A stretch of DNA of 64,000 nt from a virus. Taxonomy: Duplodnaviria; Heunggongvirae; Uroviricota; Caudoviricetes. Under the pieces are notes generated by a model that was not told the DNA's origin, made no database searches, and saw only the letters and a list, made by a program, of their open reading frames with translations. Shown here piece after piece: positions 3,026-56,390 of this stretch. Positions within the stretch are counted from its first letter, which is position 1, and every line of letters starts with the position of its first letter. The stretch lies in IMG/VR virus record IMGVR_UViG_2541047850_000005, positions 3,554 to 67,553 of that record. One strand, given 5' to 3'. Both the position numbers and the translations under genes were made by a program.

Positions 3026-3139
3026 AGTGTCTTGGTTATTTTTCTATTTTATAGACATAGGTATGTACTTACAATACAAAAAAAACCCGTAAGGATGGCG
3101 GGGCTGTCGTACTGTCGACTAATTACCACTTGCACATTA

Positions 3140-3451
3140 TCAGGCTATTGCCATCACTGATGCTCTCTGAATCTCTTGCTGGGCCACGCGGTTAACTTCC
3201 ATCAAAGCCAGTTCGAGCTGATGTTCCGGCCACATTCTTTGAAATGCCATCCAGCCTTTTCCACGCTGGCGACGAACATTCATTACATAACGAGTAAAGG
3301 TGTTTTTATCGAAAGACACCGCTGTTTCACGGAACAGACGAATAGAGGTTCCATTGGCAACGATGTCCAGCAAAGTTAATTGAGCAACCAGCGCAGGCTT
3401 CTCTTTTCTCTTCTGGTCTTTGTCCAGACCAAGAACCAATGATTTTTTCAT
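3140..3451 (-). CDS. hypothetical protein (103 aa)
   Basis: ATG 3451 has GGAG 7 nt upstream. The longer track start (3481) would lie inside motif-1 palindrome 3462-3477. Confidence 0.6.
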   Translation of the reverse strand: MKKSLVLGLDKDQKRKEKPALVAQLTLLDIVANGTSIRLFRETAVSFDKNTFTRYVMNVRRQRGKGWMAFQRMWPEHQLELALMEVNRVAQQEIQRASVMAIA

Positions 3452-3604
3452 CACAACTCCGTAAACAACTTGTTTTCTCAATGTCGTAAATAATACCAGT
3501 AAGAAAACGGCTACAAAGCATATTGATCAGGTGCATGAGCGATATGCAGGTTCTTCCCTGCGGCTATAGAGAAATTAAGCCAGCAATGCTGGCTTTGGTT
3601 GGGA

Positions 3605-3934
3605 TTACGCGAATACCTCAAGAAACTCCTGAACGTCCCAATGCTGGACGAGGTGAAGATAGACCTTAGAAATCACGTCATTTTCACTATCGCATGTGAA
3701 GTAGTACTTCTGGCTGCGGTTGTATGTGTCCACACAAAATTCGCTCATATCCATAAAGTCAGCATCTTCACCCATGTCGCAAATCATCAAAGCAGGTGCG
3801 TCATCACGAGTCATCAGCTCCAGCACCCATATTGAATTAATCAGAGTGGAAGACCAACCTTCCAGCTCATAAAACTGGTCAAACTCTTTTTGAGTCAATT
3901 TCTTAATTTGGTTGATGTCGATATTTGCAAACAT
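3605..3934 (-). CDS. hypothetical acidic protein (109 aa)
   Basis: ATG 3934 has AAGGA 8 nt upstream. Earlier in-frame ATGs fall in or after motif-1 palindrome 3946-3961. Confidence 0.6.
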   Translation of the reverse strand: MFANIDINQIKKLTQKEFDQFYELEGWSSTLINSIWVLELMTRDDAPALMICDMGEDADFMDMSEFCVDTYNRSQKYYFTCDSENDVISKVYLHLVQHWDVQEFLEVFA

Positions 3935-4073
3935 AAAGCAATCCTTAAACATGTTGTTTTCTGAATTACGTAAACAATACCAGTAAGAAAACGGCCACAA
4001 AGTATATCGTTACGGTGCTGCGCTGCCCCGGAGGTTAATAGCGACAAAAGCCACCGTGCTGGTGGCCTCACTC

Positions 4074-4292
4074 TTAATCTTGGTCGTCCGGGAACTCGCT
4101 GTGTACCGCGCCAACCAGCTCCCGCTTTTCATCTTCACTCAGCAGGTGCCAGATATCCTTCCCTTTGGGCGATTCCCCTTCTGCCGGGACGAACGACCAC
4201 AACTTGCGGTACAACTCCGGCCCCACTGCATCCAGACACTCAGCCAGGGAATCCACGCCCCACACCTCAACCGTCACAGGCATCTTAATCAT
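4074..4292 (-). CDS. hypothetical acidic protein (72 aa)
   Basis: ORF with SD GAGGA. Hairpin GCCACCGTGCTGGTGGC lies downstream. Confidence 0.55.
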   Translation of the reverse strand: MIKMPVTVEVWGVDSLAECLDAVGPELYRKLWSFVPAEGESPKGKDIWHLLSEDEKRELVGAVHSEFPDDQD

Positions 4293-4319
4293 CTCTTCAT
4301 CCTCACTTCGTTTCTATAA

Positions 4320-5760
4320 CGTCTAAATATGCTGTTTACTTGTTGGTGTTATTATCGCAATAAGACAAAGGCGAAAAAGGATTTTATGTCGGGAAAGCCA
4401 GGCTGGGCAGTGAATATCCGGGAACGACACGAGAGCCAGTATTTACGATATTCTGCTCTACGCACGCCGCGGGGCTGGTGGGCAGAATAATCCTCTCCCC
4501 GAAAACCTACTGAAATCGATTGTGACCCGCTGGCTGTCTGGCACAATTACGCTGTATCTGGCATTCAGAGGGAATCCAGCGGTAAGCAAGTCAGCCTGCA
4601 CGTGAGCGTCTCTCTTCTTCCCGCACATTACAGGTGGGTAGCTGCAACTCTCTCTCGCTATACCGGTACGCCGCCGTTCCTGAACCGGCATCGAGCCTTT
4701 TCCCGAAATCCACACAGGCAACTCGACCGTTTCCCTGAAAATCCCCAGCCGTTTCTGTAGCGTATGCAACCTTTTCTCTGTATGGACCGAAGGCTGACCG
4801 TAGGGGTGTTACGGGGGATGATGGTAAGATGTTGAATAAATACGAAAAAGGAGGCGACACCCCTCCTTCCCTCCCCACTTATACATACCTTGCTTCTTCG
4901 CTATACATGTTGTGTTTTCTTCGTGTTTTATCTGTCTCAACCTCTCTATAGGCGTTAATGCTTACTCCTTCCAGAACGTTCTATACGGCGACTATTTCTG
5001 TTGGTGAATTGGGTGTGTTGTTTTCTCTGTCGATGTATGTGGTTTCGTTCGTTTTGCGGTGGTTCTTCTATGGGGTGTTCTCGTCGTTTTGGTGATTGTT
5101 CTTCTCCGTGTATGGAGTAATGGCAGGTGGGCGATTCCTTTCGTTATTGTGTTTGAGTTGTTTGTCTGGAGTGTGTGAAGGGCTTTTGTAGTTATTCGTG
5201 TATTGGGTAATGGCGTTTCCCGTGATTGTTATGTTTCGTGTCTTTTGGGATTGAGAGAAACCTTGCGGTTACAGGCTTCGTTGGGGTTTCAGCGGTTCAG
5301 GTGTTTCTTCGCTGTTTGGGTAATGGCGTGTCGTGGGTATCGCGCGTATGAATGTTTTCGGATTGCCTGTGAAAGTTAGGTTGGTTATCCGGTAGCCTGG
5401 GAAGAAGAGGTGGGGTCTTTTCGGTAGCCTGCCATAAAGAGGTTGGTTGTTTTGGGTAATGGCATATGTGTTATTTGGTTGTTTTGTTATGCCTGAAAAT
5501 AAGTTGTTTATATGGTTGTGTAACGCAACGGGAGCGATTTTGAGCGTGTGTTTTTGTTGGTAGTGTGTTGAGTCGTCTGTGGTGAAAATTGGACGCTGTG
5601 GAGCTGTCTGCTGCGTAGGTTTACGGGTATAAGAAGTGATGTGTGAAAACGTCAATTTTTTAGACCAAATCGGGAGAAAGCGTTGATGTTTCGTTGATCT
5701 GTTATTTAGTTGTTTTCTTATTGGTATAAACAACTGTAACCTATTGATATTTAAGGATGT
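4320..5760. other. ORF-poor region; its right 0.9 kb is strongly G+T-rich on the + strand and carries dispersed short direct repeats
   Basis: Only low-complexity or overlapping ORFs. TGGGTAATGGC-type repeat at about 5113, 5203, 5316 and 5452. CGGTAGCCTG occurs twice at about 5390 and 5423. Confidence 0.5.
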
Positions 5761-5861
5761 GATTGCAGGCATGGAAGGGGAGTAGTGGCGATCAACGGAT
5801 TCTTATAGAAAAGAATCAAATTGTGACCGCCATTATCAACGGTTTGAATATGTTTGCAGAT

Positions 5862-6161
5862 TTACCAGTTCCAGCACTCAAGCCCTTCAACGACCGGCGC
5901 ACCACAATCAAAATGTACAGAGTCAAAGCCTACATCAAGTACTTTCTGAATGTTAGCAATCGCGCCTTCGGATATACCATATCGACGCAAGTCGTCTTTC
6001 CAGACATCATCCTGTAACCCGGCGTGGACAATACAACCGCCATCAATTTGTGAAACCCAATCCAGCTCATTGCTTGCGATCATGAATCGGCGAGCATCTT
6101 CCTCTGATGTATGAGATGAACTGATCAATGCCACCTGGTAGGCTTGGGTAATGTTCAACAT
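5862..6161 (-). CDS. hypothetical protein (99 aa)
   Basis: ATG 6161 has GGAG 8 nt upstream (track start 6170 is a GTG). Two motif-1 palindromes upstream (6174, 6224). Confidence 0.6.
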   Translation of the reverse strand: MLNITQAYQVALISSSHTSEEDARRFMIASNELDWVSQIDGGCIVHAGLQDDVWKDDLRRYGISEGAIANIQKVLDVGFDSVHFDCGAPVVEGLECWNW

Positions 6162-6274
6162 TTCAACCACTCCAAAACAAGTTGTTTTCTTATGTGGCTT
6201 ATTATCTCTAACAACAAAAGGCAGAAAACAAATTGTTTTAGGTACTGTGTAAATCAGAAGGGATTGTGTCTATA

Positions 6275-6303
6275 TGAAAATGCCCGGCGTGTTGCCGGGC
6301 ATT
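6275..6303 (-). terminator. metG terminator
   Basis: Hairpin AATGCCCGGC..GCCGGGCATT followed by TTTTC on the minus strand. Confidence 0.75.
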
Positions 6304-6322
6304 GCGAAGAGAGGTTGCTTAA

Positions 6323-8356: not shown

Positions 8357-8513
8357 AGTAGGCATTACTTCTTTGTAGTGAAAAGGGGCTTGATAGTAAC
8401 AAAATGGCCTTATGTCTGCCATGTGATAACAGCATTTCTCATAAATGATTAAATGCCGTAGCTGGAGTACACTACAAGGCGACAATTGCGCAAATTAAAA
8501 TAAAGGAGACGGG

Positions 8514-9614: not shown

Positions 9615-9615
9615 T

Positions 9616-9640
9616 AAAAAGGTGGTGCAATGCACCACCT
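9616..9640. terminator. bidirectional terminator shared by apbC and the humD-like gene
   Basis: AAAAA-GGTGGTGCAATGCACCACC hairpin between two convergent stop codons. Confidence 0.7.
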
Positions 9641-9651
9641 AAACAGTTCTC

Positions 9652-10041
9652 CTACATCACAGGACAATCATCAAACTCGCCACTTCTTGCGTCGTTGATA
9701 ATGTGAGTGATCACACCAAACACGGCATTGCTGCCCGTGCATCCATCATCATCCTTTGGCAATGCTTCCTTCTTACCAGTTCTTAAATCCTCCAGATGCT
9801 GACGTGGATACTTCCGGTATCTTTTTACGCGATATTCCCCATCCAGAGCACATACAAGAAGAGATCCATCAACAGGAGTGAGTGAGGAATCGACCACCAG
9901 CAATGCACCCTGCAATATTCCCTCACGATGATGGCTATCAGCTGCCCTCAAGAAGTAGGTCGCTGAAGGATGTCTAATTATCTGCTGATCAAGAGAAATA
10001 CGGCTCTCAGCATAATCCGCCGCAGGAGAGGGGTACCCCAT
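9652..10041 (-). CDS. humD: UmuD'-like protein encoded in pre-processed form (P1 HumD-like)
   Basis: MGYPSPAADYAE.. aligns with UmuD from the Cys24/Gly25 cleavage site onward. The ADSH Ser and VKRYRK Lys are retained. Confidence 0.85.
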   Translation of the reverse strand: MGYPSPAADYAESRISLDQQIIRHPSATYFLRAADSHHREGILQGALLVVDSSLTPVDGSLLVCALDGEYRVKRYRKYPRQHLEDLRTGKKEALPKDDDGCTGSNAVFGVITHIINDARSGEFDDCPVM

Positions 10042-10059
10042 AGCGTTTTACCTCAAAAA

Positions 10060-10079
10060 TACTGTTTATCTGTACAGTA
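10060..10079. promoter_or_regulatory. LexA (SOS) box upstream of the humD-like gene
   Basis: TACTGTTTATCTGTACAGTA equals CTGT-N8-ACAG, 19 bp upstream of the ATG. Confidence 0.8.
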
Positions 10080-10198
10080 TACATTAAAGAAGCACCTTTG
10101 GTGCATTAGAGAAATGCAAAACGATAATAGAGGCTAAATCGAGGTAGAAAACACATTGTTTAAGGCCACTAATTGTGGCCTTAATGGAGAGGGGATGC

Positions 10199-10723: not shown

Positions 10724-10736
10724 AACTTCGCATCCC

Positions 10737-12410: not shown

Positions 12411-12411
12411 A

Positions 12412-13881: not shown

Positions 13882-13882
13882 C

Positions 13883-15295: not shown

Positions 15296-15676
15296 CTAAT
15301 TGCCGTATAAAATGGGGTGAGGTGCTTGCCAGTAGGCTCCACCGGTCCATGTGAACCCCATGCGAATAAGAGTGTTTATTGCGGCTTTGGTAGACTCCGA
15401 TTCGACACTGGCTTTACGAAACTCTTGAACCTCTTTCGCCAACCTGTATGTAATTGTGCAGGGGACGATTGCAGCCCAGCCTTTCTCATGACTGTTAATG
15501 ACCATCTGGATGTGACCATCCAGAATAGGTTGATTAGACATGTTATTGAAAATGTCTGCCTGTTTTTGAATGTGAAGAAAAAGCCTTGCCAGCTCCATTT
15601 GCTCACTACGAGACAAGGGATTATCAAGAGGGCTTTTTGCAAAAGCGGCTATACGCTGTGCGTCAATGCCAAACAT
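15296..15676 (-). CDS. hypothetical protein (126 aa)
   Basis: ORF whose start abuts the upstream stop. Confidence 0.6.
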   Translation of the reverse strand: MFGIDAQRIAAFAKSPLDNPLSRSEQMELARLFLHIQKQADIFNNMSNQPILDGHIQMVINSHEKGWAAIVPCTITYRLAKEVQEFRKASVESESTKAAINTLIRMGFTWTGGAYWQAPHPILYGN

Positions 15677-16380
15677 CAGCGCACCTCACCATCTTTATGG
15701 CTGGAGTTAACTTCCGCCATTAAATGTCTGACGTAATCGACAAGAGAGCCACCTGGTGGAATCTGGCATTCCTCAACTAACTGGAAGTAGATATCCGCAG
15801 CATTACGTGTATTGCTACCCGCGCATATTCTTTCTTCCCGAAGTGCATGAAGCTCGTTGATCAAACGGTCACACTCTCCGTTACGCTGATCCACAACAGC
15901 CTCAAGTTCTGCGACGCGTTCACCTGGCGTCTTACCTTCTTCGCGTTGGATGGTAACGACGAAATCGCCAATTGCAGGGACGTTGTAATCCAGCTCAAGG
16001 TAGTTTTTGGCACCGCTGCGGACGAACTCACCCGCGAACATGGTGGCGAACATCTCAGAGGCCATTGTGCTGTTGAAAAGTGACTCCAGATCTAACGGAG
16101 TCCCGGCAGCCAGAGCCTCTTTTGCTGTATCCATTGCATCCATGAACCGATCAAACTCATTAGCGCGCTTTTCCAGGTCTTTCCATTGCTCGCTCCAACG
16201 TTTGGCAATGAAGTCTATGAATGTTTTCGCGGATTCATCAAAATCCCCCTCAAACTTAACGATGCCTTTATCAATAATGATCTGGCCTACCGCATCCTCT
16301 GCATAACCTTTCAATGTAAACTTGAAAGGAAAATCAGAATGGCCTGTGACGTTAAAATGCTCTAACTGGAGGTTGTTCAT
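15676..16380 (-). CDS. hypothetical protein (234 aa)
   Basis: ORF preceded by motif-2 site 16423-16442 and leader AGAGAAAAACATATG. Confidence 0.65.
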   Translation of the reverse strand: MNNLQLEHFNVTGHSDFPFKFTLKGYAEDAVGQIIIDKGIVKFEGDFDESAKTFIDFIAKRWSEQWKDLEKRANEFDRFMDAMDTAKEALAAGTPLDLESLFNSTMASEMFATMFAGEFVRSGAKNYLELDYNVPAIGDFVVTIQREEGKTPGERVAELEAVVDQRNGECDRLINELHALREERICAGSNTRNAADIYFQLVEECQIPPGGSLVDYVRHLMAEVNSSHKDGEVR

Positions 16381-16441
16381 ATGTTTTTCTCTTATCGTTT
16401 AGTTATTACATTCTTACACAAATTAAGTAAGTATTTACCTA

Positions 16442-18127
16442 TCATTTAACGCGTTTGAAAACGTATACGCTGACTGTGATCCCTGTGTCTTCAAACTCGT
16501 TGGTAAACGACTTCCCTCTGGCATAAACGTAATTATCCATCGTCATCCAGTCCAGTATTGGCGCAGTGCCCGGCAATACTGCTACAAGACGCCCGCCGAC
16601 TTTCAGATGCCCCAGCGCAGCCAGCGTGTGCTCTCTATGACGACCAAGCGAGTACGGCGGGTTCATAACGATTTTGTCGAACTGATAACCTGCGTTGTCC
16701 TCAGACCACTTTATGAAGTCGCAGCAAATCGTGTTCGTATACCCTTTTCCACGCAGGATATCAGCGAAGAGAGGTGCGATTTCTATACAGGTAACATCTT
16801 CCAGATCGGCGTTAATATAGGCCAGAAGATCCCCACGTCCGGCTTGAGGCTCCAGCAGCTTCTCACCAGGCTTCAATTCAGTGGCTCTGGCAACGTACTC
16901 AGCAATCAAGCGTGGGGTAGGGTAGAACTGGTGTGATTTTGTATCCGGTATTAAACCGGTAGCCACAATCGTATTTAGCGTATGGCCGATCTCATACTGG
17001 AACTGCCAGTGCTTTTTCTCCTGCACGCCGCCAATGAAGCTCAGTGTGCGCTCAAGCTCTTCCACCTGCGACTTCTGGAGAGCTGAATCAGAGAAGTACC
17101 ATACGCCTTTGTCTTTGCTCAATCGCCCGTCACGAAGCGCAGTGCGAACCGGCACGGAGATCGTCTTCTGGATTAACCCGAACTGCTTTGGTGCCCGTGT
17201 TTTTGGCGCAGTTCGGCATGGCGCGGGGATTGCAGCAGGCATACTGTAAGCCAGCACCTCATTCAACTTCCAGGCCACGTCAGGATGTATTTCAAAGTGA
17301 ACGTTGCCGTTCTTGAACATCTTCACGCGCATCAGATTTCCATCGACGTTCATCCAGTCACCGGTCTGGCAGTCGTTTGCCCTATACGCAGCTGATAGCA
17401 CCTCAGCAGTGCGGTTGATGGTAATAAATTCTTTGTGCGCGAAGAAATGAAGCAAGACACGCAGATCGTCGATGTAGTCCTCTTTGCGATAGTTCACGCT
17501 AACGCTGTCCCGCCAGAAATCAGAAATGCAGTCAGCGATTATCAGCCGCTCGCTGAAACCGTTTGTCTTATTTGTCTTGTGCGCAGGACTCAGCGCCTTA
17601 AACAAGCCATACACGCGCTCAGAGAGATATTTGTGCCTGTCATTCAGCAAATTAAGCATCGTGGGTATGACCGTTTCTGCTTTGAACTCCGGTACACCAA
17701 CGAACTCTTTAACCTTCATCTGATAGCCGGTTCTGTCAGTTTTGATGACTTCCTGCTTGCCCTCGATAAATTGCTCACGCCACTCGTCGCGACGGGAAGC
17801 TGGCATGATCAGCAGAACGTTAGTCATATCCGTGACCTTCCTCCAGTACTCGGCCCAAATATTCTGTTTCACCCATTCCAGATCGACGTTATCCAGCCAG
17901 ACTCGATTCAAACGTGAGCGATCTTCATCTGGTCGGTGGTTTAGTCGAAGCAGGCGATTAATCATGTTGTGGCGTTCATCGCCATAAACGAAGTCGTGTA
18001 CCTGATACATGAAGGAGATCTCTTTCTCGCACTCGGCCACAATTTCGTGGATGACGTTCATTTCCTGTCGATAGTCGATAGCAGTGTTTGAGCTGGCATC
18101 GTCCATGATGGAAAGAGCTGTATTCAT
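16442..18127 (-). CDS. N6-adenine DNA methyltransferase with a large N-terminal domain of unknown function
   Basis: C-terminal LLEPQAGRGDL (SAM motif I) and IVMNPPYS (motif IV). Confidence 0.8.
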   Translation of the reverse strand: MNTALSIMDDASSNTAIDYRQEMNVIHEIVAECEKEISFMYQVHDFVYGDERHNMINRLLRLNHRPDEDRSRLNRVWLDNVDLEWVKQNIWAEYWRKVTDMTNVLLIMPASRRDEWREQFIEGKQEVIKTDRTGYQMKVKEFVGVPEFKAETVIPTMLNLLNDRHKYLSERVYGLFKALSPAHKTNKTNGFSERLIIADCISDFWRDSVSVNYRKEDYIDDLRVLLHFFAHKEFITINRTAEVLSAAYRANDCQTGDWMNVDGNLMRVKMFKNGNVHFEIHPDVAWKLNEVLAYSMPAAIPAPCRTAPKTRAPKQFGLIQKTISVPVRTALRDGRLSKDKGVWYFSDSALQKSQVEELERTLSFIGGVQEKKHWQFQYEIGHTLNTIVATGLIPDTKSHQFYPTPRLIAEYVARATELKPGEKLLEPQAGRGDLLAYINADLEDVTCIEIAPLFADILRGKGYTNTICCDFIKWSEDNAGYQFDKIVMNPPYSLGRHREHTLAALGHLKVGGRLVAVLPGTAPILDWMTMDNYVYARGKSFTNEFEDTGITVSVYVFKRVK

Positions 18128-20761: not shown

Positions 20762-21009
20762 ACAACCGCCTTAGTCACAGCATGATCCTGAGTAACTGGA
20801 TGAACTTGAGGTATCGCATCCACCGTCATCCCATCCAGAGTGACAGGACGCTCTGCTGGAGTGGTGGTAATTGTCGTCGACGGAGGTGTGGTGATGGATG
20901 AATCCGGCATCAAAAGGCTCTGGCCGGCTGGAACGGCTACCGTCGCCAGTGAAACTATAATGAGAACGTAGGCCATTGGTTTCAGCCTCTTTCTTTGAAA
21001 ATTTTCCAT
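20758..21009 (-). CDS. alternative-frame ORF embedded in 20771..21265 (TM segment plus Pro/Thr-rich, 83 aa)
   Basis: AAGGA SD 9 nt upstream and a 4-nt ATGA overlap with the next gene. Only one of the two frames may be real. Confidence 0.3.
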   Translation of the reverse strand: MENFQRKRLKPMAYVLIIVSLATVAVPAGQSLLMPDSSITTPPSTTITTTPAERPVTLDGMTVDAIPQVHPVTQDHAVTKAVV

Positions 21010-21265
21010 TCGAACTGTCCTTGTTGTTTTTCTCCTTCACTAAAGGCCGTGCATTTTTCGCTTGGTGTGAAGAACCAGAGGTAACAATCGCCCCCACGTT
21101 CGCAACAACTGACGCTTGCTTATCTAAACGTTCATTCAGCAACCGAACGGTAGTCTCAAGTTCATCAAGACGTGACAGAACACGACCGCTAAATAATTCG
21201 GCCAAAATTTGACGTAGTGAACGAGGACGTTTAGTTGCAGAAGTGAAATAGGTTTGACGTGCCAT
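20771..21265 (-). CDS. hypothetical protein with coiled-coil N-terminus and Ser/His/Cys-rich tail (164 aa)
   Basis: ATG 21265 with GGAG 6-7 nt upstream. Tail ..HHHTSVDDNYHHSS..GGCDTSSSSSYSGSCCD. Confidence 0.5.
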   Translation of the reverse strand: MARQTYFTSATKRPRSLRQILAELFSGRVLSRLDELETTVRLLNERLDKQASVVANVGAIVTSGSSHQAKNARPLVKEKNNKDSSNGKFSKKEAETNGLRSHYSFTGDGSRSSRPEPFDAGFIHHHTSVDDNYHHSSRASCHSGWDDGGCDTSSSSSYSGSCCD

Positions 21266-21410
21266 GTGGACTCCATCCAGTGTCATAAAGAGTTGCGGCT
21301 GGCGATTGCCAGCCGCCTTTCTCGTTCCATCCTGGAACTGTGTCTTACCGACACATTGTCATCCTGACGCCGATAAGATACATGATTTATAATGATAGGT
21401 AAACACTTAC

Positions 21411-22004
21411 TTACTGCTTGTTATAAACAAAACCAATATCTTTCTTGTGAGGCATATCTGCTGCGGAAAAAGCTGCGATCTTCGCGAGTCGATCACATAT
21501 TTCATTTTCACGATGCCCGGCGTGACCTTTAACCCACTTCCAGCGAACATTATGTCGACTTGCGGCCTCATCCAGACGCTTCCACAGATCAACATTCTTT
21601 ACCGGTTTTTTGTCAGAAGTCATCCATCCATTGCGTTTCCACCATTTCATCCACTGTGTCATGCCGTTTTTCAGATACTGGCTATCAGAGTGCAAAATAA
21701 CGTTGCATGGATATTTCAAACGCTCCAGCCCGATAAGTGCCCCCATCATCTCCATGCGGTTATTGGTGGTGCTATGAAAACCATCTGAGAACTCGCGTTC
21801 CTCACCACGATACTGAAGAACGATACCGTAACCGCCCGGGCCACCCGGATTTTTAAGGCAAGAGCCATCACTGAAGATTTTCACGGTTTTAAGCTGGGGA
21901 TTGAACTCTACGACAGGCGTTGTGGGATTGGTACGGGGAGAATTTTTGTTTTTGGCTTTTTTGCGAGTTTTTGCTTGCGATCGGGCTGGTGTCTTCGTCG
22001 TCAT
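21411..22004 (-). CDS. rnhA: ribonuclease HI with a basic N-terminal extension
   Basis: [25 protein letters not shown] and [17 protein letters not shown] 22004 with an AGGAG SD. Confidence 0.9.
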
Positions 22005-22588
22005 ATAAACTCCTGAATCAAGCGCCGCGCCGATTTTTTTTTCCTCGCGCGTGCGCACACGCGTGCGTGTTAATAATTATTAAAATAAACAAATTACTTC
22101 CCAGAACAGGTTTTTATAAACCTGAACTGAACGAACGAAGTGAGTGAAGTTCACCTCGAACGAAGTGAGAGGTTGTCTTTTCAGGTAATACTCTCCCAGG
22201 GAGGTGAGTATAAAATTCCTCACCAACCTGGTCGTTTCATAACCTGAAAAGTTATGGTCTAAGTCTACTGCCAGCTTAGACTTGGGAAGTTATGGATGAC
22301 AGCACCCCAGAACCGAGATCTTCCCACACTTTATGAAGGGGAGTACTGGATTCAACCTCTCGAAACACCCCAGACTCGACAATCATAAAGTGACCCTTGT
22401 CTCTGCTCACTTTGGTTCCCCCTTCCCCGACACCTAAACGGCACCGGTTCTACGCTGGTAGTGAGCTTTTTAAACCTGACGCCAGTGACGCTTACCCCCA
22501 CCCATCAGGTCGAGCCTCCAGTCTACGACTGGAAACAATCAGATCTTAGCACTTACAATTCACTTTATGAATAGTTTGTACTTATCTA
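22005..22588 (-). other. ORF-free, hairpin-dense region (candidate long leader, ncRNA or origin)
   Basis: No ORF of 60 aa or more lies within about 22148-22588 on either strand. At least 6 stems of 6-7 bp, repeated words CATAAAGTG and TCTGGGGTG, motif-2 site at its upstream end. Confidence 0.35.
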
Positions 22589-22819
22589 TCATTGTGATTG
22601 ATTATTTTCTCGACCATGTAGTTGAACATTCAAGGCAAACACCTCATTGATCAACTCACCTAAAAGCTGTTCAACAAGTTCGCGATGCTCCCCAAGATGC
22701 AAGCACTTAATTGCCCATTCGTACAAGTTGAAAGCCTGCTCTCGATCTTTCATCATTTCACGAGCCTTAGCCAGAAAATCGCTCTCTACGAGCGCAACGA
22801 CATTAGTCGGGTATGACAT
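22589..22819 (-). CDS. hypothetical protein (76 aa)
   Basis: ATG 22819 with AAGGA 9 nt upstream. Confidence 0.55.
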   Translation of the reverse strand: MSYPTNVVALVESDFLAKAREMMKDREQAFNLYEWAIKCLHLGEHRELVEQLLGELINEVFALNVQLHGRENNQSQ

Positions 22820-23003
22820 GTTGGTTTCCTTAAAGTGGTTCATAAAATCGATTTTAAAGCGTCTGGGAAGGGGGTCTAGTGGATTCTGTAGTGATGTTCA
22901 GGTCTGGGAGTCTCTGATACAAAACAGCCTGCTTCCGTATATTAATAATTAATATGTAGTTATTTATATACAGAAGCAGGTTAATTACACTCGCCAGAAC
23001 AAA

Positions 23004-23608: not shown

Positions 23609-23628
23609 ATAGGTAAGTGATTACCTAT
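23609..23628. promoter_or_regulatory. perfect motif-2 palindrome between the -10 and the start of the Dam-like gene
   Basis: ATAGGTAAGTGATTACCTAT (8-4-8), downstream of TTGCCA-16-CAAAAAT. Confidence 0.6.
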
Positions 23629-28434: not shown

Positions 28435-28510
28435 AAAACCTCACGAAGATAAGTAATCAATTATTTATCACGTGAGTTTACATTCATTGATAACACAAGA
28501 CCAGATAGAT

Positions 28511-28540: not shown

Positions 28541-28601
28541 AATAGTCGCTCCAGAGTTTTATACGCAAATCAAATATACATTAGTAGATAATCACCTACA
28601 A

Positions 28602-29471
28602 TTATTTTTTGATCATTCCGTACATTGCTGAGGCTTTAGCTTGCTCAACAAAGGAGGATAAATCGACATCACTATAGGTTGGAGACTTCAGAATCTTTCC
28701 ATCGGAAATTCGAAAACCGATCATCTTATCGGTGCCATCAGCATGGCGGAATCCCAGATCTGAAGAGTCGTATTTGCAGTTGGCCACAGCCTGGCGACGT
28801 TCCTCGACATCAGCAGGCCATAATTTTGTCATGTTAGACCGATGAATTTCGCCAACCAGCTCGACTACATTGATACCGAGGAAATCAGCCAGTCGATAGG
28901 TCATCATGCACGCCACATAGATTTTGTTCATGACACGGCGCAGTTCCTGAATCAGCTCAGAATCCTTAACAGTCTTGTTCTCAAGTTTATCTGCCAGCTC
29001 TTCGAGCATACATGACGCCTCACGAGCTTCCTGAAATGGCATTGCCATATCATCGAAAACAGTGTTACCGGGCACAAAAATTGTCTGCATAAAGCGATCA
29101 ATGCTCTGTTCCTGCGTGTAATAGGTCATGCCGGTAGAAATACCACCTTTGATGGCGACCATCGTACCAACACCAACGTATAAAAAGTCGGCCATTGCAT
29201 CCAGCAGTTGCTCAATATCCCCATTCATTGCAGCTGGAATACCTTCCACTACAGCTTCTTCATGAATCAGGCTTGCACGGAGACGAAGCAGCTCTGGTGT
29301 CGGCATAACGCGTCTCGGATGCTGGAAGAGTTCATGAAACTGATCGACCATCTTGTAAATACTTTCAGTAGCTACACCATGACCTTCATGCAACTCATAT
29401 GGTTCTGGCTTAAATCCAATGAGACGATCGGTGGCAAGTTTCAGGTGGTCAGTCAGTTTGGTAAAGTTCAT
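28602..29471 (-). CDS. MazG-like all-alpha NTP pyrophosphohydrolase candidate
   Basis: LIHEEAVVEG.. and LLDAMADFLYVGVG, resembling the EExxE/DxxD motifs. ATG 29471. Confidence 0.5.
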   Translation of the reverse strand: MNFTKLTDHLKLATDRLIGFKPEPYELHEGHGVATESIYKMVDQFHELFQHPRRVMPTPELLRLRASLIHEEAVVEGIPAAMNGDIEQLLDAMADFLYVGVGTMVAIKGGISTGMTYYTQEQSIDRFMQTIFVPGNTVFDDMAMPFQEAREASCMLEELADKLENKTVKDSELIQELRRVMNKIYVACMMTYRLADFLGINVVELVGEIHRSNMTKLWPADVEERRQAVANCKYDSSDLGFRHADGTDKMIGFRISDGKILKSPTYSDVDLSSFVEQAKASAMYGMIKK

Positions 29472-29548
29472 GCTAGTTTTGTTCCTTCTTAATTCTTGTG
29501 ATCCATTGTGGCCCAGCGTTGCCAGGCCACATAATGCTTTGTATCGGT

Positions 29549-30691
29549 TTACAGGTCTGCAAACTGGCTTAGAGAAGCCTTGTCCACGGTAGAATCGATC
29601 TGACCTACCAGATATGTGCTTTGCTCTGCCTCTTGTGGTGCAATTTGCAGTGTGTCGGTTAACAACCACTTGTTCATCCAGACCAGCGGATCGGTGGTAA
29701 CCTCTGGAAATAAAGCCTTCAGGCCAAGACGATTCATAGCCAGATTGGTGCGGTATTTTACATAGGTCTTCAAAATATCCGCGTTTAAACCAATCATCGA
29801 ACCGTCTTTGAAGAGATACTCGGCCCAGTTCATTTCTTGTTCGGCGACTGATTTCATGGTGTCGTAAATGACGTTTTCTTCATCAGCAGCAATCTCTTTC
29901 CACAATAAACCTTCGCGACCGGTACGCATGAAGCGGATCATGCGTTCAGTTCCTTCGCAATGCAGAGCTTCATCACGGGCAATAAAGCGCATAATTTTGG
30001 TGTTACCCTCAAGCAACTTCCGTTCGCCAAAGGCAAACGTACATGCAAAACTTACATAGAAACGGATCGCCTCAAGCGCATTAATGGACACCAACGTGCG
30101 GAAAAGCTGACGGTGCAAAGGGTATGGCTCCCAGCCATATTCATTTACGTACAGACGTTCAAACTCCTTCTCACCTAACGACTGGCGCTCGCAGGTCATC
30201 CCATAAAGCCTGTCATATTCAGCAGAGATACTGATCGCTCGGTTGATGATTTCTTCATCCGTAACAATACCGTCAAAAACAATGCTCGGATCGTCCACCA
30301 TGCCACGAATAATGTGGGTGTAGCTGCGGCTATGGATAGTCTCAGAGAAAGACCATGTTTCAACCCACGTTTCCAGTTCAGGAATAGAGATAAGCGGCAG
30401 CAGCGTTGCATTTGGGCTACGTCCCTGAACTGAATCGAGTAACGTTTGATAACGGAGATTGCTCAGAAAAATGTGACGTTCGTGGTCCCGCAGCTTCGTG
30501 TTGAAGTCGATACGATCGCTCGAAATATCAACTTCTTCCGGCCGCCAGAAGAAAGACAATTGACGTTCAATCAACTTTTCAAAATCACGGTATTTTTGCT
30601 GATCGTAACGTGCCACGTTGACAGATTGTCCGAGGAACATAGGCTCTTTGGTTGCATCATTAGCACCCAAACGGAACGTTGAATATGACAT
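29549..30691 (-). CDS. nrdB: ribonucleotide reductase class Ia beta subunit
   Basis: 380 aa from MSYSTFRLG. Ferritin-like RNR2 motifs (..EALHCEG..). Leader AGGAAAAACACATG. Confidence 0.92.
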
Positions 30692-33151: not shown

Positions 33152-33185
33152 ATGTTAATAGATAAGCACCTACCTATCAATGAAA

Positions 33186-36658: not shown

Positions 36659-37744
36659 TCACACAGCCTCCGAACTCTCCGCTTCGGTGAGGATTTCCTG
36701 ACACAAAATATCCAACTTGCTCAGATCAAATCCGCCGTCAGTATCGTGGACAATCTTGCAATAAGCAGATACCGACTCTCCCAGGCTATCGATTTTGCTG
36801 GTTTCCGTTGTGCTTACTGTCCCTTCCATCATTGATGACTTACGGATGAAGTTGCACACGACACCTTTTGCACCCATTGTTTTGAGGATGTTCTGGTACT
36901 TAATGCCTTCTTCATCGTTCTCAATTACGGCGCGGAAACGCACGTAGTTGCCGCGAATTTGGTCATCGGCAACATAATCTTCTAGGTTAATGAATTTAGG
37001 CGCACTGGTTTCGTAGTGACTGAAACTGCCGTCCGGGTTTACGATCATGTAACCAGCCAGAGATCCAACATCTCCCCAATTTTGATGGGTCAGCGCACCG
37101 ACACTGATAACTCCAGGAATGACCTCTTTGTGGTTGTGGTAATGCCCACTAAGCACGAGACGAAAGCCGATATCCTTTAACTCCTGCGCATCGATACCGA
37201 CGTCAGGCATTGTTGGAATGGCTTTGTTAATGGATGTATGGATAACAACGTCATGATTATCACCTTCTACGCTCTTACGTAATGCTTTCAGATCGCTGAT
37301 AAGCTCCGCATGATTGTTACGCCAGCTAATCAGGTGGACAGTCACATCACCAATTTTTATTGAGTGTGGGCGTTTGCCACATACGATTACCACGCCGATA
37401 GAACTCAGCGATGCTGCTGCGTTGGCGCTATATACTGAATCGTTGGTTTCAAGATCGTGATTACCGGCCAGCATTACTACTGTCAGATCAAGCTCGTTGA
37501 TAATCCACTTGTACGTTTCAGTTACGTAATGCAAAACAGAAGGGGACACAGTTCCTCGGACGTGAAATGTATCACCGGCAACCAACATGTACTTACAACC
37601 GGCCTTCTTCATGGCGATGGCTGCTTCTTTCGTTGCTTCCAACTGTATTTCAAGTCTGGAGTTAAGCCCCTCAGCGTTCGTCGTGGAGAACGCATCCCAT
37701 TTGTGGTAGTGGCAGTCAGAAATGACGCCGTATGGCAAAGTCAT
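36659..37744 (-). CDS. SbcD/Mre11-like nuclease
   Basis: Metallophosphoesterase motifs DCHYH, GDTFH, GNHD and GHYHNH. Leader AGGAAAAACACATG. Confidence 0.85.
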   Translation of the reverse strand: MTLPYGVISDCHYHKWDAFSTTNAEGLNSRLEIQLEATKEAAIAMKKAGCKYMLVAGDTFHVRGTVSPSVLHYVTETYKWIINELDLTVVMLAGNHDLETNDSVYSANAAASLSSIGVVIVCGKRPHSIKIGDVTVHLISWRNNHAELISDLKALRKSVEGDNHDVVIHTSINKAIPTMPDVGIDAQELKDIGFRLVLSGHYHNHKEVIPGVISVGALTHQNWGDVGSLAGYMIVNPDGSFSHYETSAPKFINLEDYVADDQIRGNYVRFRAVIENDEEGIKYQNILKTMGAKGVVCNFIRKSSMMEGTVSTTETSKIDSLGESVSAYCKIVHDTDGGFDLSKLDILCQEILTEAESSEAV

Positions 37745-37998
37745 GTGTTTTTCCTTTGTGGTTATTTTGATACAAATTTTAAGAGCAATGAGAAGGTAAA
37801 CAACTATGCATAACGGTATGTTAGGAATGAAACGAGCGTCTTAATATACAAAATTTATAAGTAAGTATATACCTATTTGTTGTGACGCAACTTTGCTTGT
37901 CTGTATGACTAAAAATAAGACAGGATCACTGTAGAACGCTATGAGAGCTATTTTGAGGGGGCGTAGATTCTATCTACGCCAATATACGATCTGGAGGG

Positions 37999-41186: not shown

Positions 41187-41401
41187 GCTGCCACCTCTTT
41201 GATTACATCAAATGCTGAATTAAATACGAGCACGATAGCCAAAGCGTTTATGACTACGTCGTTCACCGGGGAAAAGACTTTACGAATGACACCGGTGAAA
41301 ATGCAGTCGATGACAAAAGCTATTGAAACGATGAGTAACAAGTATTCAATAAAAATCTTAATGATAGGTAGATACTAACTTATATAAATTTTACTGTAAA
41401 C

Positions 41402-41677
41402 TCACTCAAAAGTGCTGATGCTTAAAATACGCTCAAGATGTGCGGCATCTTCATCACTGATTTGTTGAGTCTCTTCTACGTACCAACAGTTGCCGTTATG
41501 CCAACAAACACCATCATCATCAACCATCACTGAATCAGCGTCATGACCTGTATATTCAACGAGAATACGCTGGATCAGCGCGTCAGTTTCTTCGTCGTTA
41601 AGACCATCGGCTTTGACCATAAAAAGCGGAAACACGTCATAGACAGTGCTGGTAACGATTCGAACTAAAACTCTCAT
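41402..41677 (-). CDS. hypothetical protein (91 aa)
   Basis: ORF with leader AGGAAAAACACATG. Confidence 0.55.
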   Translation of the reverse strand: MRVLVRIVTSTVYDVFPLFMVKADGLNDEETDALIQRILVEYTGHDADSVMVDDDGVCWHNGNCWYVEETQQISDEDAAHLERILSISTFE

Positions 41678-43285: not shown

Positions 43286-43347
43286 GTGTTTTCCTATGTG
43301 GTTGTTATGCGAAAATAATAAGTAAGTGCTTATGTATTTTCAAGAGA

Positions 43348-43372: not shown

Positions 43373-43377
43373 TGTGT

Positions 43378-45717: not shown

Positions 45718-45719
45718 GA

Positions 45720-46981: not shown

Positions 46982-46990
46982 GTAATGGGA

Positions 46991-48019: not shown

Positions 48020-48136
48020 GTGTTTCTCCTTGTTGTGATTTGGCCGATGGCGCTATGCGCGTTGGGCTTTCGTTCATTCGTGGCTCTTTCGAGCTGTTTA
48101 ATGATAGATCAGTGCTTACTTATTATCTATCAAAAA

Positions 48137-53628: not shown

Positions 53629-53723
53629 GCGTTTTTCCTTTGTTTTCTAATGAGCTTTCAACTTCTTATATAAATATACCATCAAATATCGTAAGTGATT
53701 ACTTATCATTAAGGCTATTCTAA

Positions 53724-55832
53724 TCACTTCAAAATGATACGAGATAGTTCAGTAACTACAGATGAACCAAGACTATCAACGCTCGTTACCAGGGCATGGT
53801 TTGCGTAAAATCTCTCCGGTGCGTCAGTCATGATGCCAATTGCCATCAAATCAATGTCAGTCTGCGTTTCAATTTGCTTCGCAACCGAACGCAAATGAGC
53901 GTCAAAACCTCTCCCAACAGCCAACGGCTCGCCATCATTCAGAACAAGCATGATCTTCCTGTCCTCCATGCGACCGGAAAATAACGATGCAAGGCTGGCT
54001 ATGCTTTCACCATCCACGTTATTAAGAAGTGGGAATGTGTAGCCTACGCACCCCATACGTGAGCGAACTTCGCGAGAATTTACCTTTTCATTCCAATTTT
54101 TGATGATAGGTAGCATTAAAGATTCAAAGCGAGAGAACTCATACTTGACAGCCTTAAGTTCTCCTGCCGCCATATGACTACCAAATGTAGTGAAGCCGGT
54201 GATAATGTTGGGAACATTTATTCGATCAAGGGCATCGGCGATGGTATATGCACTTGCAAGAGCCAATTGTATCGTTATACCACTCATTGAACCTGATAAA
54301 TCAATCACTTGTTGAACACAGGCGTTAACGGCTTTAGATTCTTCTTTTTTACGAAACACGCGATCATCATTCATTGCTAATCTGTAGATACTAGAACCAT
54401 GAATGCGCCCCCGACGCTGGCCCGGTATAAACTGAACTCTGTTTCTGCTTGCTATTGCTCGCTCCAGGTCTTTTGCCAGCGTCGACGAAACACCTGACGA
54501 AAGATGCTTTTCAATATATTTGTCGAAGAGCTGGTTGCCTTCAGGAACGATGCGATAGCGGCTGATTGGATATCCTCCTAAATCAATATCGGAGAATGTT
54601 TTAATAAGCCGTTTGATATGGGCTTCTGCCTGATCAATCGAGCCGATGAAGTCGTATGAGCGATTGTATGGCCTGTATTCACTTTTCGAGCTTTCTGTTA
54701 ACTCGCTTTTAATCGTTTCGGATAGAGCATCTTCTGTCATGCCTCCGACTTCATCTTCTATGCTATCCAGCTCCTCTAAAGCCTCTTCCAGACTCATTTT
54801 TGACGTAGTTGGAATATCTGAAGAGCCGTCTTCTGTCGTTTTTCTTTTTTCGTGGTCAGCGGTTAATGATTCTGACGCCGCGTTATCAGAAGCATCAGAA
54901 TCTGATACCTCTTTATCATTTTCTGTATCATCGAATATTGTTTCTGATGATTCAGAATTATCTGAATCATCACTGTCGTTATTATCATGTTTGTGCTTAC
55001 TATGTGATTCTGATTTGATAGATTTGTGATTATCTAACAATGAGGGTGTCTCATGATCTTCGTTGTCTTCATTGTTTTCTCCAGAGGCATCCGTCTGGTC
55101 AGCGTCTGAAGGATCGGAAGTTTTTCCCGGAGCTGACTCCTTACCTTTGCTTTCACTTTCAGTGTCTTTGAGGATCTTAGCTATGGTCGCAGCCACCTTT
55201 ACACAATCCTCGGTGCAAGACATGTTACGCACGGCCACATCGATACCATGTTCTTTTAATAATGAAATTGGTTTCTCAATGACAGGCCAATATTCATCCA
55301 TGAAATCTACGAACGGTGCTTGGCCATCCCAGGCTCTTACAACCGGACAGAGAAAGAAGTTTAGAAAAAGCGCGCGCTGATCTTTGCCACAATAAGCAAT
55401 AGCCTCTGAAGCCTTTGGTTTAAAGACTTTTTCGATTATAAGGCGCTGAGTTGCCATCAGATTACGTCTTGTTCCGTTAAAGACCTGACCCATTTTTCGC
55501 TCGATGAACACGTCTTCTAAGGCATTCCATAGCGACCAGGAAGGAACGCGTCCTTTTTCTTTCATTTTGTTGGACACACGAATATCGGTAAACAAAATGT
55601 GAGCAACCTCATGATCGAGAAATCCGCGCACAGCATTCATCAATGCCGGTGTTGCGTTATCCGGGATTGATGGGATGTTTACGAGAATTGGCTCTCCATC
55701 ATCATTATAGCGTACATAAGCGTCGTCCCCTCGTTCTGCAACAGGGATGTTTTTACCTGAAAGGAGAGCGACTACTCGTTTTACACTGTCACGGAAGTCC
55801 TGAACCTCTTTGATGGAACGTTTTTTAGACAT
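53724..55832 (-). CDS. CobT-like vWA-domain protein with an N-terminal HExxH motif and an acidic linker
   Basis: C-terminal VIDLSGSMSG MIDAS. HEVAH at aa 74-78. D/S/E-rich segment at about aa 225-345. Confidence 0.8.
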   Translation of the reverse strand: MSKKRSIKEVQDFRDSVKRVVALLSGKNIPVAERGDDAYVRYNDDGEPILVNIPSIPDNATPALMNAVRGFLDHEVAHILFTDIRVSNKMKEKGRVPSWSLWNALEDVFIERKMGQVFNGTRRNLMATQRLIIEKVFKPKASEAIAYCGKDQRALFLNFFLCPVVRAWDGQAPFVDFMDEYWPVIEKPISLLKEHGIDVAVRNMSCTEDCVKVAATIAKILKDTESESKGKESAPGKTSDPSDADQTDASGENNEDNEDHETPSLLDNHKSIKSESHSKHKHDNNDSDDSDNSESSETIFDDTENDKEVSDSDASDNAASESLTADHEKRKTTEDGSSDIPTTSKMSLEEALEELDSIEDEVGGMTEDALSETIKSELTESSKSEYRPYNRSYDFIGSIDQAEAHIKRLIKTFSDIDLGGYPISRYRIVPEGNQLFDKYIEKHLSSGVSSTLAKDLERAIASRNRVQFIPGQRRGRIHGSSIYRLAMNDDRVFRKKEESKAVNACVQQVIDLSGSMSGITIQLALASAYTIADALDRINVPNIITGFTTFGSHMAAGELKAVKYEFSRFESLMLPIIKNWNEKVNSREVRSRMGCVGYTFPLLNNVDGESIASLASLFSGRMEDRKIMLVLNDGEPLAVGRGFDAHLRSVAKQIETQTDIDLMAIGIMTDAPERFYANHALVTSVDSLGSSVVTELSRIILK

Positions 55833-55930
55833 GGCTAATCCTTTGTTATGAAAACAAATTATTTACTAGTATGTTTAATGTAGCACTGCGCGAACAGGGA
55901 ACTAAGCCATTCGCGCAGGTAGCAGAGGGG

Positions 55931-56143
55931 TTAACAGGTTCTGACGGCTAAAGAGCCAGAGCCGGTATTGATAAGCGTGAAGCGTTTGTTATTAAGTAGG
56001 AATATAAAGGCTGTTGCGTCATGCATACCAACCTGAATCTGCTCATTTGGTAATTCGGTGAGAATGTCAGCTACACATTCATCAGCTAATTTTTCAACGT
56101 GTCCGATCTCAAGAGTGATTAGGCTGGAAATAGTTGTTTTCAT
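55931..56143 (-). CDS. hypothetical protein (70 aa), first leftward gene of the divergent control region
   Basis: ORF divergent from the XRE gene. Confidence 0.5.
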   Translation of the reverse strand: MKTTISSLITLEIGHVEKLADECVADILTELPNEQIQVGMHDATAFIFLLNNKRFTLINTGSGSLAVRTC

Positions 56144-56318
56144 TCAATCAATCCATTCTAACTTAAAATATGGTAGGGAGTACTATTAAATCTTATATCA
56201 TAATTGAACTTATCTATATCATATCTGAGTTAGTTTTGTTACATGTTATTAGTCGTTTTTCTCCATTAATGAATGCTGATTGGTTAATATTTGTGCCTGT
56301 AGAAAAAATGATTATATC

Positions 56319-56361
56319 TTTACAACCCTAACCTTTGATGTAATATCGGTAAGCACTTACC
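56319..56361 (+). promoter_or_regulatory. candidate promoter of the XRE gene with a motif-2 half-site palindrome at +1
   Basis: TTTACA-16-TAATAT, then GGTAAGCACTTACC at 56348-56361. Confidence 0.5.
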
Positions 56362-56390
56362 AGAGAGTTTAACGCGCAAAGGTCGCAATA

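Follow-up and report, generated by a model that had tools for sequence, protein, structure and literature searches.

The stretch of DNA analysed here, the window, is 64,000 nucleotides (nt) long and covers positions 3,554 to 67,553 of the IMG/VR virus record IMGVR_UViG_2541047850_000005. Sequence comparison identifies its positions ~1-57,900 as belonging to an SSU5-like phage-plasmid of E. coli. A 24-kb probe from the window aligns over 92% of its length with Escherichia phage Cyrano, the plasmid prophage pLF82, at 97.8% identity; many E. coli plasmids of 105-115 kb match the window at ~97%, and Salmonella phage SSU5 is ~77% identical to it. Nearly all genes between 2,000 and 56,200 lie on the minus strand. 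Past the integrase gene, the window carries cargo, an AraC-family regulator and a chaperone-usher fimbrial operon of the PapC/PapD type (58408-63102). Two components of the element concern us here: a 20-bp palindrome that recurs in the gaps between its genes, and a gene at 56391..56777 encoding a 128-residue XRE-type protein which, from its sequence and from published RNA sequencing (RNA-seq), is the best candidate for the protein that binds the palindrome.

The consensus of the repeat is a perfect 20-bp palindrome, in which the half-sites ATAGGTAAGT and ACTTACCTAT meet at the dyad, with weak symmetric flanks. A sequence-only reading of this DNA had taken the four central bases to be free; they are constrained to GTAC or GYRC. 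Each of the 14 site sequences in that reading is present where it was placed. To avoid circularity, the sites were scored with a matrix trained solely on the sites of SSU5 and of Klebsiella phage pJN2-26. Twelve of the 14 score from 11.5 to 27.2. The copies at 28584 (8.1) and 53687 (8.9) are marginal, although orthologues occupy the same junctions in Cyrano/SSU5, and a further copy at 22948-22967 (15.6) had been missed.

The abundance of the motif is far above chance. A pattern search of the window found nine sites with at most three mismatches versus 0.18 expected, and none of 100 shuffled sequences reached nine. The independent matrix gave 13 matches scoring at least 10 versus 0.2 expected from 200 Markov simulations. 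None of these lies inside a coding sequence; all are in gaps or touch a stop codon. In Cyrano, which has an annotation curated by its authors, non-coding DNA makes up 13% of the genome and holds 23 of the 25 sites (binomial P < 1e-15). A motif equally common in coding sequence, which the sequence-only reading had named as counting against its proposal, is thus not what is found. At eight orthologous junctions compared across four lineages, identity is 81% in the motif columns versus 55% in the 40-nt flanks (P = 2e-16). The copies in the window are as follows, with scores from the matrix described above; promoter-like hexamers are given with the length of their spacer.

3057..3076, unstranded: palindrome copy, score 18.1; 31 nt upstream of gene 2618..3025 (minus strand) and directly past a terminator-like hairpin; overlapped in the gene-sense direction by TTGTAA-17-TAAAAT; orthologues at Cyrano 96686 and SSU5 93165.
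16423..16442, unstranded: palindrome copy, score 27.0; touches the stop codon of a DUF4942 gene (16442..18127, minus strand), 42 nt before gene 15676..16380 (minus strand); orthologues in SSU5 and pJN2-26.
21395..21414, unstranded: palindrome copy, score 25.2; contains the stop codon of rnhA (21411..22058, minus strand), upstream of gene 20771..21286 (minus strand); identity 92% in motif columns versus 58% in flanks across four lineages.
22570..22589, unstranded: weak copy with a degenerate right arm, score 14.6; at the stop codon of gene 22589..22843 (minus strand), before a locus free of long open reading frames; a stronger SSU5 orthologue reads ATCGGTAAGTACTTACCATT.
22948..22967, unstranded: additional weak copy, score 15.6; between the Dam-like methylase gene and gene 22589..22843 (minus strand); Cyrano orthologue at 78095.
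23609..23628, unstranded: best copy, score 26.4, with two mismatches to the 20-bp consensus, both central; 11 nt before the start of the Dam-like methylase gene (23597); TTGCCA-17-AAAAAT ends at motif position 3, so that the palindrome covers the expected start site.
28449..28468, unstranded: palindrome copy, score 18.5; 14 nt before the start of the thymidylate synthase gene (28434), with the ribosome-binding site GAGG immediately after it.
28584..28603, unstranded: marginal copy, score 8.1; at the stop codon of a MazG-like gene (28602..29669, minus strand); weak positional orthologues at Cyrano 72458 and SSU5 72357.
33158..33177, unstranded: palindrome copy, score 23.7; 8 nt past the stop codon of a RuvC-like gene and 45 nt before nrdA; TTGATA-17-TAACAT in the gene-sense direction.
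37857..37876, unstranded: palindrome copy, score 27.2; 112 nt before an sbcD-like gene (36659..37744, minus strand); identity 82% in the motif versus 44% in flanks.
41364..41383, unstranded: palindrome copy, score 21.0; between gene 41402..41677 (minus strand) and the next small gene; overlapped by TTTACA-17-TAGTAT and TTTATA-16-TATCAT; in Cyrano, RNA rises by 3.65 log2 from the gene before to the gene after in macrophage-grown cells.
43318..43337, unstranded: palindrome copy, score 19.2; past the recA terminator, 32 nt before a membrane-protein/SPFH operon (start 43285); TTGAAA-17-TATTAT (10/12) with its spacer filled by the palindrome; RNA rises by 3.6 log2 across the orthologous Cyrano site.
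48104..48123, unstranded: palindrome copy, score 21.8; between a UvsY-like gene and a gp32-like SSB gene (start 48019); TAGATA-17-TATCAT; identity 83% in the motif versus 61% in flanks.
53687..53706, unstranded: weak copy, score 8.9; between cobT-like and cobS-like genes (cobS start 53628); orthologues at the same junction in SSU5 (45124, score 19.1) and in the E. coli lineage L093.
56345..56364, unstranded: core-only copy GGTAAGCACTTACC; at the promoter of the XRE gene, 26 nt before its start codon.

Two further features lie close to these sites. A motif-like sequence inside the cobT-like gene 53724..55832 (55018-55037) is weak in the window and recurs in relatives (SSU5 43661, score 19.2; pJN2-26 91932, score 23.8; L093 8598). 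Between the site at 33158 and the start of nrdA, a hairpin GGGCCACTATATTTAGTGGCCC followed by a T-run (33130-33151) is conserved in SSU5, pJN2-26, and the Klebsiella lineage L121, and comparable palindrome-then-hairpin layouts follow the capsid and tail J genes of Cyrano. This hairpin could be an attenuator or an insulating terminator.

The sequence-only reading placed the palindromes on replication and deoxynucleotide-synthesis genes. This restriction is an artefact of where the window ends. At a score of at least 16, the complete genomes of Cyrano, SSU5, and pJN2-26 have 22, 24, and 21 sites, respectively. An Acinetobacter relative has ~30 copies of a different palindrome. In the relatives of the window, sites lie in the gap between terminase and portal genes and, upstream of the capsid genes, within the 3' end of the portal gene; another position follows the capsid gene. 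Sites also precede the genes for the major tail, tail-tip, and fibre proteins, for holin and helicase/primase, and parB. Judged by position in these sequences, essentially all lytic transcription units, whether early or late, are marked by the motif.

Since palindrome copies often contain the stop codon of the upstream gene and lie exactly at gene-cassette junctions, and since the SSU5-like family is highly mosaic, the repeats might be mainly recombination or module-boundary sequences, as in the promoter/stem-loop cassettes of T4-type phages, or DNA sites for replication or packaging, with any regulation incidental. The distribution of the copies makes this very unlikely. Co-linear genomes retain them at matching orthologous junctions, not around variable cargo; the accessory and cargo regions of the window (~3,100-16,400 and beyond 56,400, with the fimbrial cargo at 58408-63102) are free of copies. 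The special copy at the XRE promoter would also be left unexplained.

A second question is whether the repeat acts as DNA or as RNA. The sequence-only reading had offered RNA hairpins as its alternative, and in intercistronic regions of a transcript these might serve as stabilisers, processing sites, weak terminators, or translational elements. Perfect copies can indeed form an 8-bp stem, worth -7 kcal/mol at 23609 and 33158; the flanks are A-rich upstream and T-rich downstream, and several copies adjoin ribosome-binding sites. The arms, however, vary independently. Among 66 distinct sites, 465 Watson-Crick pairs join the arms versus 472 under shuffling, and compensatory double changes number 19 versus 23 expected. 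Pairing and compensation at or below chance point to a dimeric, sequence-specific DNA-binding protein rather than to an RNA hairpin. The symmetry of the motif, which extends to its flanks, fits a dimer as well: the matrix is dyad-symmetric, with no asymmetry between arms. What is conserved is primary sequence, including the GTAC that would form the loop, and not structure. When the 15 window sites were folded, nine gave -2.0 kcal/mol or weaker, three of them 0.0, and a scan of the whole window matched no Rfam family. At the XRE promoter, finally, the gene that the copy serves is encoded on the other strand, and no terminator was called there. We therefore regard RNA hairpins as a most improbable explanation. 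A structured RNA or intrinsic terminator was rejected as a candidate on the same covariation and folding energies, which show no stem kept by compensatory change.

The XRE gene and its surroundings are organised as follows.

56391..56777, plus strand: XRE/Cro-C1-type helix-turn-helix (HTH) protein of 128 amino acids (aa), the candidate repressor (PHROG 8 and AlphaFold2 fold); CYRAN_45 in Cyrano.
56319..56346, plus strand: sigma70-like promoter of the XRE gene, with TTTACA at 56319-56324, a 16-nt spacer, and TAATAT at 56341-56346; the sole promoter-like match in 55800-56800.
55931..56143, minus strand: 70-aa gene divergent from the XRE gene, the first of the cobT-cobS-dnaE transcription unit; no DNA-binding domain detected.
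56772..57875, minus strand: tyrosine integrase gene (Pfam Phage_integrase), convergent with the XRE gene and overlapping its 3' end.
57902..57921, unstranded: LexA box TACTGTATAAGTAAACAGTA, 26 nt upstream of the integrase start.

The XRE protein matches PHROG 8, "transcriptional regulator" (E 7e-12). Its AlphaFold2 model (mean predicted local distance difference test, pLDDT, 79) begins with a five-helix domain, whose helices span residues 12-65, and continues with a helical C-terminal part. Foldseek matches this model to P22 c2, 434, the restriction-modification controller protein C.AhdI, SinR, and the small repressor Rep of Salmonella phage SPC32H with a probability of ~1.0 and E values of only 0.015-0.15; 5d4z, 3jxb, 1pra, and 2r63 are among the matches. 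A search of the PDB by sequence returned nothing useful. The fold is that of a DNA-binding domain like the one of the lambda repressor, and the XRE signature in the sequence is weak but consistent. The 128-aa protein, with its all-helical C-terminus, showed no match to an S24 peptidase domain, and the sole S24 protein in the window (9652..10041) lacks an HTH.

The site at 56345-56364 overlaps the end of the -10 element (TAATAT) and the expected +1 of the XRE promoter. Of 80 related viral contigs, whose XRE loci encode 26 distinct sequences of 59-100% identity, 79 keep its core-only variant, ATC(G/A)GTAAG(C/T)ACTTACCA(G/A/T)A, upstream of the XRE gene with 21-31 nt to the start codon, and an own-promoter site was seen in every enterobacterial lineage examined, including L093 and L121. 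This sequence evidence bears out the layout of an autoregulated repressor that had been noticed at this position. The recognition helix, GYKN(A/P)NNLSLIKSGKIPLP, is near-invariant despite up to ~40% divergence of the protein. No HTH partner resembling Cro was detected. The divergent 70-aa gene was considered as a Cro analogue and set aside, as it has no detectable DNA-binding domain.

If the XRE protein reads the palindrome, half-site and recognition helix should change together among related elements, a check proposed with the sequence-only reading. Sequence comparison suggests that in part they do. In the Klebsiella lineage, whose XRE protein is just 45% identical, the helix reads NANNISLIKSG and the same arms, ATAAGTAA and TTACTTAT, are kept; two weak sites lie at the XRE start. 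In Acinetobacter relatives, both differ: the helix is NQNMVSFIVRG and the ~30 copies are of a different palindrome, with half-sites TATTAGTAAGC and GCTTACTAATA. The E. coli lineage P0032/L093, for which the analysis covers 20 kb, has an altered helix, KYQNQVSFIKSG, together with altered sites at lytic genes, GTATGTAT..TTTAC, while its overall divergence is no greater than that of pJN2-26 or SSU5. The match between helix and motif does not extend to the L093 XRE promoter, considered below. The full genome of this helix-variant lineage is absent from PLSDB and IMG/VR. A variant palindrome also occurs on the 108-kb IMG/VR contig L106, whose SSU5-like structural region is more diverged; it reads GTATGTAAATACATACATAC and is found at 78, 1744, and 3640, the terminase/portal, pre-scaffold, and post-capsid junctions.

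XRE homologues, always beside an integrase gene, occur on about 800-1000 PLSDB records, and in plasmids their numbers follow those of a CobS-like marker from genus to genus (XRE/CobS counts: Klebsiella 348/366, Escherichia 230/241, Enterobacter 92/98, Yersinia 63/63, and Salmonella 49/51). SSU5, which was isolated as a free phage, keeps the motif and lacks XRE. Compared with its nearest plasmid relatives (92-93% identity), it has lost ~3 kb that include both integrase and XRE genes. SSU5 is therefore a deletion variant, not a counter-example.

Expression in a lysogen can be read from published RNA-seq of E. coli LF82 carrying Cyrano (PMC9928086, Table 1 and supplementary expression table). CYRAN_45, the XRE gene, stands at 96 versus a prophage median of 9.8, ~10-fold above background, and most palindrome-flanked operons are at ~5-20, near background. 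In macrophage-grown LF82, the first genes past some sites rise (log2 changes: CYRAN_46, the orthologue of the 70-aa gene 55931..56143, +6.4; CYRAN_56, +5.3; CYRAN_60, +6.3; CYRAN_12, +4.1), which fits promoters at those sites. As a test for a promoter at every site, these data are weak (P = 0.02 in one condition; a paired test was not significant). The site at the XRE gene's own promoter, the near-invariant helix, the partial co-change of motif and helix, the co-occurrence in plasmids, and the expression in the lysogen together form a circumstantial link between XRE and the palindrome.

The palindrome may still be a protein site and its binder another protein, either a global regulator of the KorB/ParB type, the 88-aa DNA-binding protein DBD123 encoded beside the terminase genes, or a host factor. 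KorB of IncP plasmids, a ParB-type protein with dispersed palindromic operators, sets a precedent. All lineages, SSU5 and Acinetobacter included, have conserved two ParB-like genes and DBD123, and SSU5 keeps the motif without XRE, an absence that its deletion explains. In the lysogen, the ParB-like genes CYRAN_119 and CYRAN_120 (5.0 and 9.5) and DBD123 (7.8) are at background. These proteins therefore cannot be the lysogenic binder that maintains silencing, and they were rejected as such. Nor do their genes show an autoregulatory placement of the site, beyond an ordinary upstream copy before parB. Against a host factor, elements of the same host species carry variant motifs (L093 and L106), and in a collection with one genome for each of 185,579 species the perfect 18-mer occurs on just four contigs, none of them Escherichia. 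Another binder is thus quite unlikely.

The position of the palindrome relative to promoters bears on whether its binding represses or activates. Gene-sense sigma70-like promoters (at least 9 of 12 matches) overlap six of the 14 listed sites on the minus strand (3057, 23609, 33158, 41364, 43318, and 48104), and one on the plus strand overlaps the XRE site at 56345. Among the 66 sites, which include orthologous sites of three related genomes and are not all independent, 24 have such a promoter in the gene sense versus five on the opposite strand. Typically, the -35 element is just upstream, the -10 element begins at motif position 18 or 21, and the palindrome fills the 17-bp spacer. From the sequence, a near-consensus promoter with an occupied spacer would call for repression rather than activation.

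The alternative is that the palindrome is an element of activator-dependent lytic promoters, as in P1, where an inverted repeat replaces the -35 in late promoters that are read with the activator Lpa. Here, a phage protein made after induction would bind the palindrome and activate early and late operons, and at its own promoter the copy would shut XRE off. The scarcity of good -35 elements fits such a scheme, as does a TATCAT or TATTAT that often starts at motif position 18; in Acinetobacter relatives, the downstream arm is often TATAAT or TAATAT. The motif is far more widely conserved than usual immunity specificities, and some first genes past a site rise in macrophage-grown LF82, as described above. 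The -10-like TAnnnT at position 18, however, is equally frequent on both strands (45 of 80 sense versus 42 of 80 antisense) and is thus a consequence of the palindrome itself. Several sites also leave no room for a transcript start. The terminase/portal gap is 26 nt and is filled by the palindrome, and at dam, thyX, and hyp31 just 11-14 nt separate its end from the start codon, with the ribosome-binding site following it immediately; this spacing excludes a promoter of their own. Where a -35 is present, the promoter is near consensus with a filled 17-bp spacer (TTGAAA-17-TATTAT at 43318 and TTGAAA-17-TATCAT at its Cyrano orthologue). No conserved candidate for such an activator emerged. An Acinetobacter plasmid (NZ_CP096770; L012 9298-9963) encodes a sigma-70-family factor directly past its cobS-like gene. 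This factor was rejected as a reader of the motif, since no homologue could be detected in the window, in Cyrano, in SSU5, or in pJN2-26. Overall, an activator site seems unlikely.

We consider it probable, on the sequence evidence, that the palindrome is the operator of the element's lysogeny repressor, and that this repressor is most probably a dimer of the 128-aa XRE protein. The proposed mechanism is as follows. Some 21-24 copies per genome (13-15 in the window) would be occupied in the short gaps that separate genes of the lytic cycle. Roughly one site in three has the palindrome in the spacer or over the -10 or start, and there bound repressor would exclude RNA polymerase. The remaining sites lie within transcription units, directly beside a stop codon or ribosome-binding site; here the repressor might serve as a roadblock or mask a weak promoter. 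The weaker, core-only copy over the XRE start site would provide negative autoregulation. The outcome would be that early and late genes alike are silenced during plasmid life. Binding by XRE, repression through that binding, and the mode of derepression are what we infer. The sequence-only reading had made XRE the master regulator of the replication module through these sites. A protein operator, the site at the XRE gene's own promoter, the helix, and the lysogen RNA speak for that view with XRE as the presumed binder; the proposed regulon has to be widened to essentially the whole lytic genome, late genes included.

Several observations weigh against this proposal. The literature searched holds no binding or genetic data on any SSU5-family member. 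Both Pfam models, HTH_19 and HTH_3, score below their curated cut-offs on the XRE protein (18.9 versus 30.2 bits). Across E. coli, Salmonella, and Klebsiella elements, the motif is more uniform than immunity determinants usually are. A recognisable -35 is missing at about two thirds of the sites, a situation that activator-dependent promoters would fit too. In L093, the site at the XRE promoter is still of the main type despite the altered helix, and in Acinetobacter only half-site-like matches lie upstream of XRE.

We file the system under prophage repressors with genome-wide operators, a known general kind, outside the protein families of P1 C1, L5 gp71, and the lambda-type repressors. By analogy, its function looks like that of P1 C1 and L5 gp71, while fold and operator symmetry look Cro/C1-type. 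P1 C1 acts at more than a dozen operators over a plasmid prophage of ~100 kb and controls replication, methylase, ssb-type, and other lytic functions. The present element would likewise be a plasmid prophage of ~100 kb with one repressor and many scattered operators; the 13-15 sites in the window alone exceed ten. The P1 operators are asymmetric 17-mers, and control of the late genes of P1 is indirect, by way of Lpa. The present site, in contrast, is a perfect 20-bp palindrome without arm asymmetry, so the asymmetric, orientation-dependent sites that characterise P1 and L5 are not found, and it also stands before structural and lysis genes. In its model, the candidate repressor shows an XRE fold, which points to the XRE family rather than to a relationship with P1 C1 or L5 gp71.

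The comparison with the "stoperators" of L5 gp71 (Cluster A) is closest in placement. In both cases, the sites lie in short intergenic gaps, serve early and late operons, and mix promoter with intra-operon positions. The L5 sites, ~20-30 per genome with many away from promoters, are 13 bp long, asymmetric, and orientation-dependent, whereas those described here are symmetric and about a third of them lie over recognisable promoters; a block to elongation is here only proposed. From the 434, P22 c2, and SPC32H Rep repressors come the likeness of the N-terminal fold, the dyad-symmetric operator, the site over the repressor's own promoter, and the divergent lytic operon, and SPC32H Rep shares the XRE type without an S24 peptidase domain. 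The lambdoid switch differs in its tripartite OR and its Cro, for here one operator, no detected Cro-like partner, at least 20 remote operators, and a 10-bp half-site with a conserved centre are found. KorB and KorA of IncP plasmids also use palindromic operators dispersed over a plasmid at variable distance from promoters. Unlike the case of KorB, the ParB-like genes here lie beyond the window and stay silent in the lysogen, and the motif is unrelated to the KorB operator. The dispersed-repressor strategy, known from P1 and L5, is new for the SSU5-like family within the literature searched, which describes neither the motif nor a repressor/operator pair for this family. A 2024 review lists no lysis/lysogeny regulator for SSU5-like phage-plasmids.

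How such a repressor would be relieved is suggested by the neighbouring integrase gene. A scan of the window for LexA boxes gave two near-consensus matches versus 0.03 expected, at 57902-57921 and 10060-10079. The former, before int, is conserved in the five enterobacterial lineages examined (Cyrano, pJN2-26, L093, and L121 among them). The latter lies upstream of the HTH-less S24/UmuD-like gene 9652..10041 (minus strand). RNA from the integrase and S24/UmuD-like genes rises ~26- to 32-fold in macrophage-grown LF82, the integrase ~26-fold. The integrase gene overlaps the 3' end of XRE by 6 nt, and the two were lost together in SSU5. P1 C1 lacks a RecA-cleavable domain, so that its induction needs another route. 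Given the LexA box, the convergent overlap, and the rise of int, it is plausible that SOS-driven antisense transcription from int through XRE would relieve a non-cleavable repressor. The fuller scheme, in which one XRE repressor silences a 100-kb phage-plasmid through ~25 sites, mostly intra-operon roadblocks, and is relieved by LexA-controlled antisense transcription from int and not by cleavage, is one that we hold as a doubtful conjecture. If true, enterobacterial SSU5, pHCM2, pKpn, and pSLy3 plasmids would have a compact LexA-int-repressor induction switch in common.

In E. coli, Klebsiella, Salmonella, Enterobacter, and Yersinia, SSU5-like phage-plasmids rank with the most frequent large plasmids that are not conjugative, and they carry resistance and fimbrial cargo, the latter type in the window. 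A defined operator and a named candidate repressor make their lysogeny switch directly testable. The proposal predicts that XRE supplied in trans gives immunity to SSU5, a phage used in therapeutic cocktails, and the palindrome offers a sequence signature for annotating transcription units across the family.

Three minor observations concern other parts of the window. The recA-like gene at 43378-45717 encodes 779 aa, and the annotated recombinase gene of SSU5 (54580..55656) ~358 aa; a LAGLIDADG homing endonuclease is annotated in the recA-like region of related plasmids. Judged by these sequences, the gene likely contains an intein or a homing-endonuclease insertion. The segment 22080-22570 has no long open reading frame and no Rfam match. 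For the corresponding segment of Cyrano, the annotation gives CYRAN_81, of 44 aa; it is 98% conserved in SSU5, and its RNA is 12-fold above background in the lysogen. This segment may encode a small RNA or a micro-protein expressed in lysogeny. Finally, a different dispersed palindrome, AAAACAA-N-TTGTTTT, probably the one that the sequence-only reading had counted as its first, was found by pattern search at 14 sites with at most two mismatches versus 0.9 expected, as follows.

1794, 2559, 3462, 3946, 5496, 6174, 6225, 10148, 15231, 19774, 20503, 30721, 42174, 55851: AAAACAA-N-TTGTTTT 15-mers.

In Cyrano, this palindrome also lies before terS, parA, and a helicase gene, and it recurs in the Klebsiella lineage L121. 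With its one-base centre, the loop would be too small for a hairpin, and the palindrome is probably the site of a second regulator.

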